Assembly: GCF_055900595.2 (NCBI RefSeq)
Contig: NZ_CM148325.1
Length of the DNA: 64,000 nucleotides
Reading direction: 5' to 3' (one strand)
Shown here: positions 6,373 to 6,500 of the stretch, one piece after another
Layout of the letters: each line of letters starts with the position of its first letter
How positions within the stretch are numbered: the first letter of the stretch is position 1
The notes under the pieces: model-generated
Database searches by the model: none
Seen by the model: the letters and a program-made list of their open reading frames with translations, nothing else
Told to the model about the DNA's origin: nothing
Translations under genes and position numbers: made by a program

Positions 6373-6500
6373 TGCCGGATGCGGCGTAAACGCCTTATCC
6401 GGCCTACATTTGGCAACGGCTGTAGGCCTGATAAGACGCAACGGCGTCGCATCAGGCGTTGATTGCCTGATACCGCCTACACGCGGACTGATAAGCCAGG
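6373..6500. repeat. REP/BIME cluster (about three REP units) in the nrdD-nrdG spacer
   Basis: Repeated GCCGGATGCGGCGTAAACGCCTTATCCGGCCTACA-type units in alternating orientation; boundaries approximate. Confidence 0.7.

Follow-up and report, generated by a model that had tools for sequence, protein, structure and literature searches.

The 64,000-nucleotide stretch of contig NZ_CM148325.1 (assembly GCF_055900595.2) analysed here, called the window throughout, is a segment of the Escherichia coli chromosome that runs from treR to yjfC and corresponds to the reverse complement of ~4.41-4.47 Mb of K-12 MG1655. Considered as a single joint reading, it is highly probable that six sites in this window are copies of the E. 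coli repetitive extragenic palindromic (REP) units and of the bacterial interspersed mosaic elements (BIMEs) that they compose, and that the hairpins transcribed from them most likely favour the upstream cistron. The finding is real but ordinary, and it is already known: the elements are catalogued in K-12, and an in-operon effect at nrdD-nrdG has been published. Nothing new is learned about REPs in general, and the value of the window lies in two concrete in-operon cases, one of which, nrdD-nrdG, has been measured in K-12 (approximately 2.5-fold more reductase than activase mRNA).

The clusters are located between nrdD and nrdG (C1), yjgA and mpl (C2), ytfQ and ytfR (C3), msrA and paeA (C4), cpdB and ytfH (C5), and yjfN and aidB (C6). 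Gene positions were taken from two annotated relatives, and the stop and start codons adjoining each cluster were verified in the window. The region is common in the species: a 1.2-kb nrdD-nrdG probe was present in 5425 of 5426 complete E. coli genomes and was 100% identical to several chromosomes. Units were identified by scanning both strands of the entire 64-kb window by dynamic-programming edit distance to the Y, Z1 and Z2 consensus, following the family definition and the Y/Z1/Z2 and BIME-1/BIME-2 nomenclature of PMC3333891; the consensus rows were written out for this analysis and not copied from the defining figure. The strand of a unit is the one reading GCC(G/T)GATGCG...CCTAC, and 20 dinucleotide-preserving shuffles of the window served as the chance control.

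The scan yielded 12 full REP units and two half units, all of them within the six ranges at which an earlier sequence-only reading had proposed REP/BIME clusters (the sixth turning out larger than listed, as described below). Seven loci were found at up to 12% edits and 10 units at up to 21%, none being found in the shuffles at either threshold, and 17 loci were found at up to 30% edits, compared with a shuffle mean of 2.85. Since that many hits are expected by chance at the loosest threshold, five additional weak hits at 10200, 18801, 32762, 49866 and 59051 (24-30% edits, four of them intragenic) were rejected as chance level, including the Z1-like one at 18801-18825; a 26-nt match within fbp (12051-12076) was also rejected as chance. 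The 13-mer GCCGGATGCGGCG had 61 matches with up to three mismatches, against 31 expected. The proposed identity was thereby confirmed at all six ranges, with units aligning to Y, Z1 and Z2. The description of the units as near-identical needs qualification: among the Y units it is accurate for C1 and C2 alone, divergence in the remaining ones being 12-26%, and the tag is gone from four units.

Conservation of the hairpin provides a second line of evidence. When the 12 full units were aligned together with the three consensus rows, mean column identity was 75%, and 93% of the alignment cells expected to pair in the hairpin did so, compared with 85% in shuffled alignments (0 of 500 as high) and 33-43% in slid controls. 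Compensatory changes were detected in five of the 12 hairpin pairs. RNA folding, which had been proposed as a check together with the consensus search, points in the same direction: canonical units fold at -20 to -22 kcal/mol into hairpins whose stem is interrupted by a 1x1 or 2x2 internal loop, the usual mismatch, and the folds of whole clusters are stronger than those of shuffled sequences, with z-scores from -2.5 to -6.4. The GTAG/CTAC tag is kept in eight of the 12 full units and lost in C3 Y (GCCC), C3 Z2 (GCAC), C6 Y (CAAC) and C6 Z2 (CAAC). Apart from this loss in four units, every testable defining feature of the REP family is present.

The Rfam family naRNA4 (RF02564), which describes a Z2+Y pair and has a gathering threshold of 59.5 bits, was matched on the minus strand at C2 (86.2 bits) and C3 (63.6 bits), and below threshold at C1 (41.9 bits) and C6 (29.7 bits). 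In annotation, these spans are to be labelled REP/BIME repeats and not small-RNA genes, the naRNA4 hits being family-level only. Copy number is also that of a dispersed repeat. The C1 query has a median of 25 matching places per genome across E. coli, the C4 element has at least 40 in 5425 of 5426 E. coli genomes, and 51 REP clusters were found in 850 kb sampled from K-12.

All six clusters are extragenic and lie downstream of the 3' end of at least one gene, as the sequence-only reading had stated. Three are between tandem genes (C1 in nrdD>nrdG and C3 in ytfQ>ytfR, both within operons, and C4 in msrA>paeA, between separate units), three are between convergent genes (C2 yjgA/mpl, C5 cpdB/ytfH and C6 yjfN/aidB), and none is between divergent genes, which fits the published REP distribution (roughly 40% tandem, 60% convergent and 1% divergent). 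The ytfQ-ytfR cluster was the only one that had been named as lying inside an operon; it is indeed operon-internal, but so is the nrdD-nrdG cluster at 6373-6500. In the K-12 catalogue, for which REP names were taken from the table of a preprint supplement, C5 corresponds to REP334, C4 to REP335 and C3 to REP336; REP337 and REP338 were absent from the supplement searched, hence C1 and C2 are given no REP name here.

GC-rich hairpins at the 3' ends of genes could also be ordinary intrinsic terminators or chance palindromes belonging to no repeat family. This explanation has a practically negligible probability and was discarded on three grounds: no U tract was found at the two in-operon clusters scanned for it, C1 and C3; ten units were found against none in shuffled sequence; and there are dozens of copies per genome. 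Specifically, no U-tract terminator-like site was detected at 6200-6700 or at 15900-16500, and neither the C1 nor the C3 spacer contains a sigma-70-like promoter match.

Compared with the Y, Z1 and Z2 units and BIMEs described in E. coli (Gilson, Bachellier; PMC3333891), the clusters share sequence, length, the mismatched palindrome, mostly the tag, the alternation of Y and Z units, the 3'-end location and the copy number. No categorical difference was found; relative to K-12, the copies of this strain show point changes, the loss of tags at C3 and a more complete eroded Z2 at C6. C1, C2 and C3 have the composition of BIME-2, with Y and Z2 separated by short linkers of 12-14 nt, and the unit content of C3 varies by strain from Y alone to Y+Z2+Y. 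C4 matches BIME-1 in having Y and, inverted, Z1, separated by a long linker with an IHF-like site.

REPs are non-autonomous imperfect palindromes of 30-40 nt, thought to be spread by a single-copy REP-associated tyrosine transposase, and would survive only in spacers that hold a gene's 3' end. Once transcribed, each unit is predicted to fold into a stable RNA hairpin that lacks a U tract. Such a hairpin would block 3'-to-5' exonucleases and might also allow partial Rho-dependent termination, with the result that the upstream cistron would outlast or outnumber the downstream one; this scheme is inferred in general and documented for C1. A general trend in this direction has been described, tandem gene pairs with a REP showing a higher upstream/downstream expression ratio. 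The stability or attenuation role suggested by the sequence-only reading differs in standing between the two operons: it is documented in K-12 for nrdD-nrdG, whereas the setting of a ratio at ytfQ-ytfR is plausible only.

The nrdD-nrdG spacer comprises 157 nt between the nrdD stop codon (6348-6350) and the nrdG ATG (6508), both on the plus strand. Its Y unit, at 6373-6408 on the plus strand (consensus match 6374-6407; 1 edit of 34), begins 23 nt past the nrdD stop codon and folds at -21.3 kcal/mol with an internal mismatch. The Z2 unit, at 6421-6458 on the minus strand (match 6422-6457; 3 edits of 36; -20 to -21 kcal/mol), lies tail-to-tail with it across a 12-nt linker. What remains of one or two additional, degenerate units (GCCTGATACCGCCTACA / CTGATAAGCCAGGC) follows at 6463-6500, with a fold of -8 to -10 kcal/mol and only an overlapping 10-edit hit. 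The spacer is identical to that of K-12 at 144 of 157 positions (92%), and the Y unit is unchanged. The GTAG tag of the Z2 unit is intact in this strain, whereas K-12 reads CTCCAGGTCTG; since the C1 Z2 tag is lost in K-12 and the C3 tags here, tag decay is independent for each locus and lineage.

Differential decay of the two cistrons has been measured in E. coli BW25113, with an nrdD/nrdG half-life ratio of 2.38 +/- 0.18 and a steady-state mRNA ratio of 2.70 +/- 0.18 (PMC5927463). The 60 nt upstream of the Term-seq 3' end reported there for nrdD-nrdG (S3 and S6 tables) equal window positions 6349-6408 with one mismatch; this K-12 3' end therefore falls at the base of the Y unit of C1, at the equivalent of 6408. 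In the same data set the Salmonella nrdD/nrdG mRNA ratio is 8.1, with the 3' end unrecorded. A full-text literature search pairing nrdD/nrdG with REP gave nothing relevant. The arrangement resembles the REP stabiliser of malE-malF (Newbury et al. 1987) and the hairpins of PMC5927463, a set to which nrdD-nrdG itself belongs: a hairpin likewise free of a U tract follows the first cistron, and it is the product of the first gene that is required in larger amount (for malE and ytfQ a binding protein, for nrdD the catalytic subunit). All features of this type of protective hairpin are seen at C1 in the K-12 data and the site is conserved here, so that C1 very probably biases expression toward nrdD in this strain as well.

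The second in-operon cluster occupies the 132-nt spacer (16096-16227) between the ytfQ stop codon (16228-16230) and the ytfR ATG (16095), both on the minus strand, within the ytfQRT-yjfF operon, of which it is the only long spacer in E. coli. Three nucleotides past the ytfQ stop codon begins a perfect 7-bp hairpin, GGCATCA n5 TGATGCC (16206-16226; approximately -10.5 kcal/mol), which is non-canonical and not a REP unit. The first REP on the ytfQ mRNA, approximately 29 nt past the stop codon, is a Y unit with an eroded tag (GGCGGCCC) at 16164-16199 on the plus strand (match 16165-16197; 4 edits; -20.4 kcal/mol on the mRNA strand). Next on the transcript, as its second hairpin, comes a Z2 unit whose CTAC tag is eroded (16115-16152, minus strand; match 16116-16151; 6 edits; -16.3 kcal/mol on the mRNA strand) and which ends approximately 20 nt ahead of the ytfR ATG.

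This spacer is polymorphic. It measures 139 nt in K-12 and UTI89, with tags intact; 309 nt in other strains, with Y+Z2+Y and a boxC-like element (CCCCTCGCCCCTTCGGGGAGAGGGTTAGGGTGAGGGG); and 212 nt in further strains, with Y and the boxC-like element but without Z2. The K-12 form is the commonest, and the allele of the window (at least 95% identity) was found in approximately 430 of 5426 records. A Y unit located 25-30 nt past the ytfQ stop codon is common to all six E. coli spacer sequences sampled, which represent four spacer types. These alleles (intact Y+Z2, eroded Y+Z2, Y+boxC-like, Y+Z2+Y+boxC-like) constitute a natural series for probing the ratio of binding protein to transporter.

Regarding expression, Term-seq in K-12 places a 3' end at 4451058, on the A of the ytfR start codon (PMC7815308, Supplementary file 1), which indicates that a ytfQ-only transcript end exists. 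Its position is compatible alike with termination, trimming or protection by a bound ribosome. In the preprint supplement, the RNA-seq baseMean of ytfQ is 300 and that of ytfR 206, a rough length-normalised difference of approximately 2.3-fold. By analogy with malE-malF, it is somewhat more probable than the contrary that C3 would bias expression toward ytfQ, that is, toward the binding protein YtfQ over YtfR, YtfT and YjfF. A full-text literature search pairing ytfQ with REP returned nothing relevant.

The position of this 3' end bears on a different mechanism, in which the in-operon clusters would act mainly as partial Rho-dependent attenuators, with polymerase pausing at the hairpins and Rho freeing a fraction of the transcripts. 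The K-12 end near ytfR is located 28 nt past the hairpin and not at its foot, which is also where C3 departs from the malE-malF type, this being its only mapped 3' end. Attenuation associated with BIMEs has been reported, and REP325, an array of Z2+Y pairs between the co-oriented genes of the yjdM-yjdN operon that belongs to naRNA4 (RF02564), is reported to be a partial Rho-dependent terminator as well as an mRNA stabiliser; it differs from the clusters of the window, where C2 and C3 exceed the family threshold, in having 12 units instead of two or three. In the 142 nt past C1, C exceeds G (43 vs 32), and a Rho-dependent region is listed in K-12 35-46 nt 3' of REP335, the equivalent of C4. Nevertheless, C and G are balanced past C3 (35 vs 32), and the decay study saw no significant Rho termination at its protective hairpins, nrdD-nrdG among them (PMC5927463). 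A bicyclomycin data set likewise shows no sense-strand Rho region at the ytfQ-ytfR or nrdD-nrdG spacer: it contains neither of the names ytfQ and ytfR, and its hits for nrdD and nrdG are intragenic or antisense. Rho-dependent attenuation may contribute; as the main function of the in-operon clusters it is rather unlikely.

The reading of C3 as a protective hairpin gains from comparison across species. A total of 78 species representatives in which ytfQ is followed by ytfR (Enterobacterales, Aeromonas, Vibrio and alpha-proteobacteria) have a median spacer of 103 nt after the ytfQ homologue. For the best single hairpin per spacer, the median is -28.5 kcal/mol, compared with -20.6 kcal/mol in shuffled spacers (paired Wilcoxon p = 6e-13), and 69 of the 78 spacers contain a hairpin of -20 kcal/mol or stronger. 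The source of the hairpin changes between taxa. In E. coli it is supplied by the Y/Z2 units; in Citrobacter and Enterobacter by Z1-like inverted doublets; and in Pseudocitrobacter, E. cloacae, Pluralibacter and Phytobacter by CCCTCTCCC...GGGAGAGGG elements. Pantoea and Erwinia have a hairpin followed by a T-run, and the remaining species have apparently unique hairpins. Two Serratia species, with spacers of 22-23 nt, have no hairpin and are the sole such cases among the 78. As the spacers of 69 of 78 species draw on unrelated repeat families or unique hairpins, these data suggest that the hairpin, and not the REP sequence, is the selected feature. They also suggest that structure 3' of the binding-protein gene is what is conserved, REPs being one means of supplying it.

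Several observations weigh against an upstream-favouring role of the clusters. Across the genome, mRNA half-lives are not uniformly longer where REPs are present, and REP insertions into reporters failed to stabilise them. All the experimental data come from K-12 derivatives and not from this strain. The ytfQRT-yjfF operon is absent from the decay data set of PMC5927463, and a literature search found no decay or protein-ratio measurement for it. The ytfR 3' end has a low count (1505 reads) and stands away from the foot of the Z2 hairpin (PMC7815308); it appears on one sheet only, inferred from caption order to be LB OD 2.0. The window carries a minority form of C3, with eroded tags and the weaker Z2 hairpin given above. 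Shuffled ytfQ-ytfR spacers also reach -20 kcal/mol in 41 of 78 species, GC-rich spacers folding strongly in any case. Finally, C4 Y, C4 Z1, C5 Z1 and C6 Z2 are too degraded to form strong hairpins on their own.

Some of these observations would be expected if the clusters were selfish or neutral residues that accumulate in harmless 3'-end spacers, with no selected effect at any of the six sites. Turnover is rapid: at least four spacer types, differing in unit content, occur at C3 within E. coli, with the form of the window in the minority; C6 differs from K-12 by 33 nt; tags have been lost in different strains at C1 and C3; and eroded units are present among the six clusters. REP locations differ between strains, and half-lives show no genome-wide difference. 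However, neutrality at all six sites does not fit the measured differential decay at nrdD-nrdG, where a 3' end coincides with the Y hairpin of C1, the maintenance of hairpin stems through compensatory changes, or the strong hairpin 3' of ytfQ in most of the species sampled, including species whose hairpins are unrelated or apparently unique, in what in E. coli is the only long spacer of the operon. Neutrality throughout is considered unlikely, and protection of the upstream cistron remains the preferred reading at the two in-operon sites. The three convergent clusters and the msrA-paeA cluster may have little or no selected function; their hairpins would be expected to determine where the adjoining mRNAs end or to protect those 3' ends.

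Among the convergent spacers, C2, between the yjgA stop codon (9837-9839) and that of mpl (9995-9997, minus strand), contains a half-Y consisting of a truncated left arm (9866-9881, plus strand; 13-mer match with 1 mismatch), a Z2 unit (9884-9922, minus strand; match 9885-9921; 3 edits; -21 to -22 kcal/mol) that forms part of the naRNA4 match, and, head-to-head with it, a Y unit equal to the consensus (9934-9969, plus strand; match 9935-9968; 0 edits; -21.3 kcal/mol). The cluster fold has z-scores of -6.0 on the plus strand and -5.6 on the minus strand.

C5, between the stop codons of cpdB (32022-32024) and ytfH (TAA, 32149-32151, minus strand), is an atypical mix in which a Y-like unit and a Z1 are joined by a short linker. 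The Y-like variant GGCGGATGCGGTG...ATCCGCCCTACA (32069-32106, plus strand; match 32070-32105) is 9 edits from the consensus and still folds at -21.6 kcal/mol, its stem being preserved by compensatory changes such as the pair at alignment columns 3/33. Next to it, an isolated half-Y arm (32050-32063, minus strand; 13-mer with 2 mismatches) pairs with its left arm. The Z1 variant (32117-32147, minus strand; match 32118-32146; 4 edits) starts 3 nt past the ytfH stop codon. Canonical units lie 23-47 nt from the remaining stop codons, and the eroded Z2 of C6 is 8 nt from that of aidB.

This proximity admits an explanation specific to C5, namely that a REP so close to the stop codon stalls the terminating ribosome and leads to tmRNA rescue and less YtfH. 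Liang, Rudd and Deutscher reportedly found in 2015 that REPs within approximately 15 nt of a stop codon lower translation through stalling and tmRNA. The C5 Z1 falls into this stop-proximal class because it starts within that limit (ytfH stop codon at 32151-32149, end of Z1 at 32146), and on the ytfH mRNA strand it is part of a compound fold of -54.8 kcal/mol (z-score -6.4) whose stem starts approximately 10 nt past the stop codon. Nevertheless, the Z1 hairpin alone is weak (-6.8 kcal/mol), and stalling at ytfH is possible but doubtful.

At C6, a Y variant with the tag CAAC for CTAC (59118-59153, plus strand; match 59119-59152; 7 edits; -20.0 kcal/mol) begins 25 nt past the yjfN stop codon, and its upper stem GGCA/TGCC is preserved by a compensatory change. 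The range originally given for this cluster, 59115-59155, does contain the Y unit, but the cluster is larger: an eroded Z2-like unit, unlisted there, lies 46 nt further on at 59198-59235 (minus strand; match 59199-59234; 9 edits; -7 to -10 kcal/mol; direct-repeat family D14), ahead of the aidB stop codon (59243-59245). The spacer is 149 nt here and 116 nt in K-12, where the eroded Z2 is mostly deleted.

The genes on either side of C4, msrA and paeA, share an orientation but are under separate control. The cluster comprises a Y unit with a weakened stem (TTGCCAGG) located 47 nt past the msrA stop codon (25146-25181, plus strand; match 25147-25180; 4 edits; hairpin of -12.5 kcal/mol only), a 33-nt L-type linker (25182-25214) and a Z1 unit (25215-25245, minus strand; match 25216-25244; 3 edits of 29; approximately -10 to -11 kcal/mol). 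The linker, identical in K-12 REP335, contains an IHF-consensus-like site, ATTCAATGTATTG, at 25193-25205 (12/13 match), where binding is putative.

Such a site could point to a role exerted on the DNA, through IHF at the C4 BIME-1, gyrase at the BIME-2 clusters C1-C3, or a nucleoid organisation of the HU/naRNA4 type. Gyrase binds BIME-2 elements, and C2 and C3 exceed the naRNA4 gathering score. The Y-L-Z1 layout of C4 agrees with the observation that BIME-1 linkers often carry an IHF site (PMC3333891). However, recent work saw no measurable nucleoid compaction and no REP-REP contacts due to REP325, HU or naRNA4, so that the nucleoid role of REP325 is disputed; a naRNA4 match means only that a Z2+Y pair is present, and in this strain the stem of the C4 Y unit has degraded. 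A DNA-level role is accordingly judged improbable, and action through the transcribed hairpin is preferred.

Further signals lie downstream of C4. The Rfam family STnc450 is found in the paeA (ytfL) leader at 25303-25360 (plus strand), just 3' of the cluster; a strong K-12 Term-seq 3' end (70,082 reads) falls at the paeA start codon (window 25422); and the Rho-dependent region past REP335 mentioned above belongs to the same stretch. These paeA leader signals look like attenuation distinct from the C4 REP.

Several clusters are inverted doublets that can fold as one long hairpin (the minimum-energy folds of C1 and C5, and the minus strand of C2), as in the REPIN/RAYT (TnpA_REP) system; polymorphism of copy number and content between strains is also shared. 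The single-copy REP-associated tyrosine transposase known in K-12 (PMC3333891) is not encoded within the window, and mobility events were not seen. The orientation of the units is uniform, with six of six Y units on the plus strand of the window and all full Z units on the minus strand. In a K-12 sample of 17 stretches (850 kb) scanned in the same way as the window, Y was on the minus strand in 20 clusters and on the plus strand in seven in the right replichore, and in nine and 14, respectively, in the left (Fisher p = 0.02). A GTAG-first Y, the form to which the REP transposase binds, was on the lagging-strand template in 34 of 50 K-12 clusters (binomial p = 0.015, gene orientation being uncontrolled), in 29 of 44 when the region of the window itself was left out (p = 0.049), and in nine of 14 in the seven newest samples alone, which is not significant. 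No statement of a Y strand bias was found in two papers on the REP transposase. A tie between REP orientation and replication direction is a tentative lead, given the weak 2:1 trend. Should it be true and not due to gene orientation, it would be a genomic footprint of REPs spreading via the single-stranded DNA of replication forks, Y being the hairpin that is preferentially recognised.

Some other features of the window deserve mention. The 44-nt convergent spacer between ytfE and cycA contains a perfect 9-bp palindrome, CTGGATGGC n5 GCCATCCAG (35326-35352; approximately -16 kcal/mol). It is listed as REP333 in the K-12 table and was rejected as a seventh cluster, being more than 30% edits away from Y, Z1 and Z2; it is more like a bidirectional terminator hairpin. 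The ppa/ytfP spacer (18025-18401) is variable, with 377 nt here, 886 nt including the chpS-chpB toxin-antitoxin genes in K-12, and a frameshifted esiB in strain E200086. Between ytfB and rplI (~38547-47900), where K-12 has only ytfA and yjfZ, the window encodes a TetR-family regulator and approximately eight further genes, among them those for a ketoacyl-ACP reductase, an isomerase, an enoyl-CoA hydratase, a CoA transferase, an FAD oxidoreductase and a TRAP transporter. Also absent from K-12 are a YagU-family gene located between yjfY and ulaF and, after nrdG, a gene for a RelB/DinJ antitoxin. Finally, strong Rfam matches were obtained to the ES239 sRNA between cysQ and cpdB (29958-30080, minus strand; 149 bits) and to the RpsF leader upstream of rpsF (49397-49481, minus strand; 110 bits).

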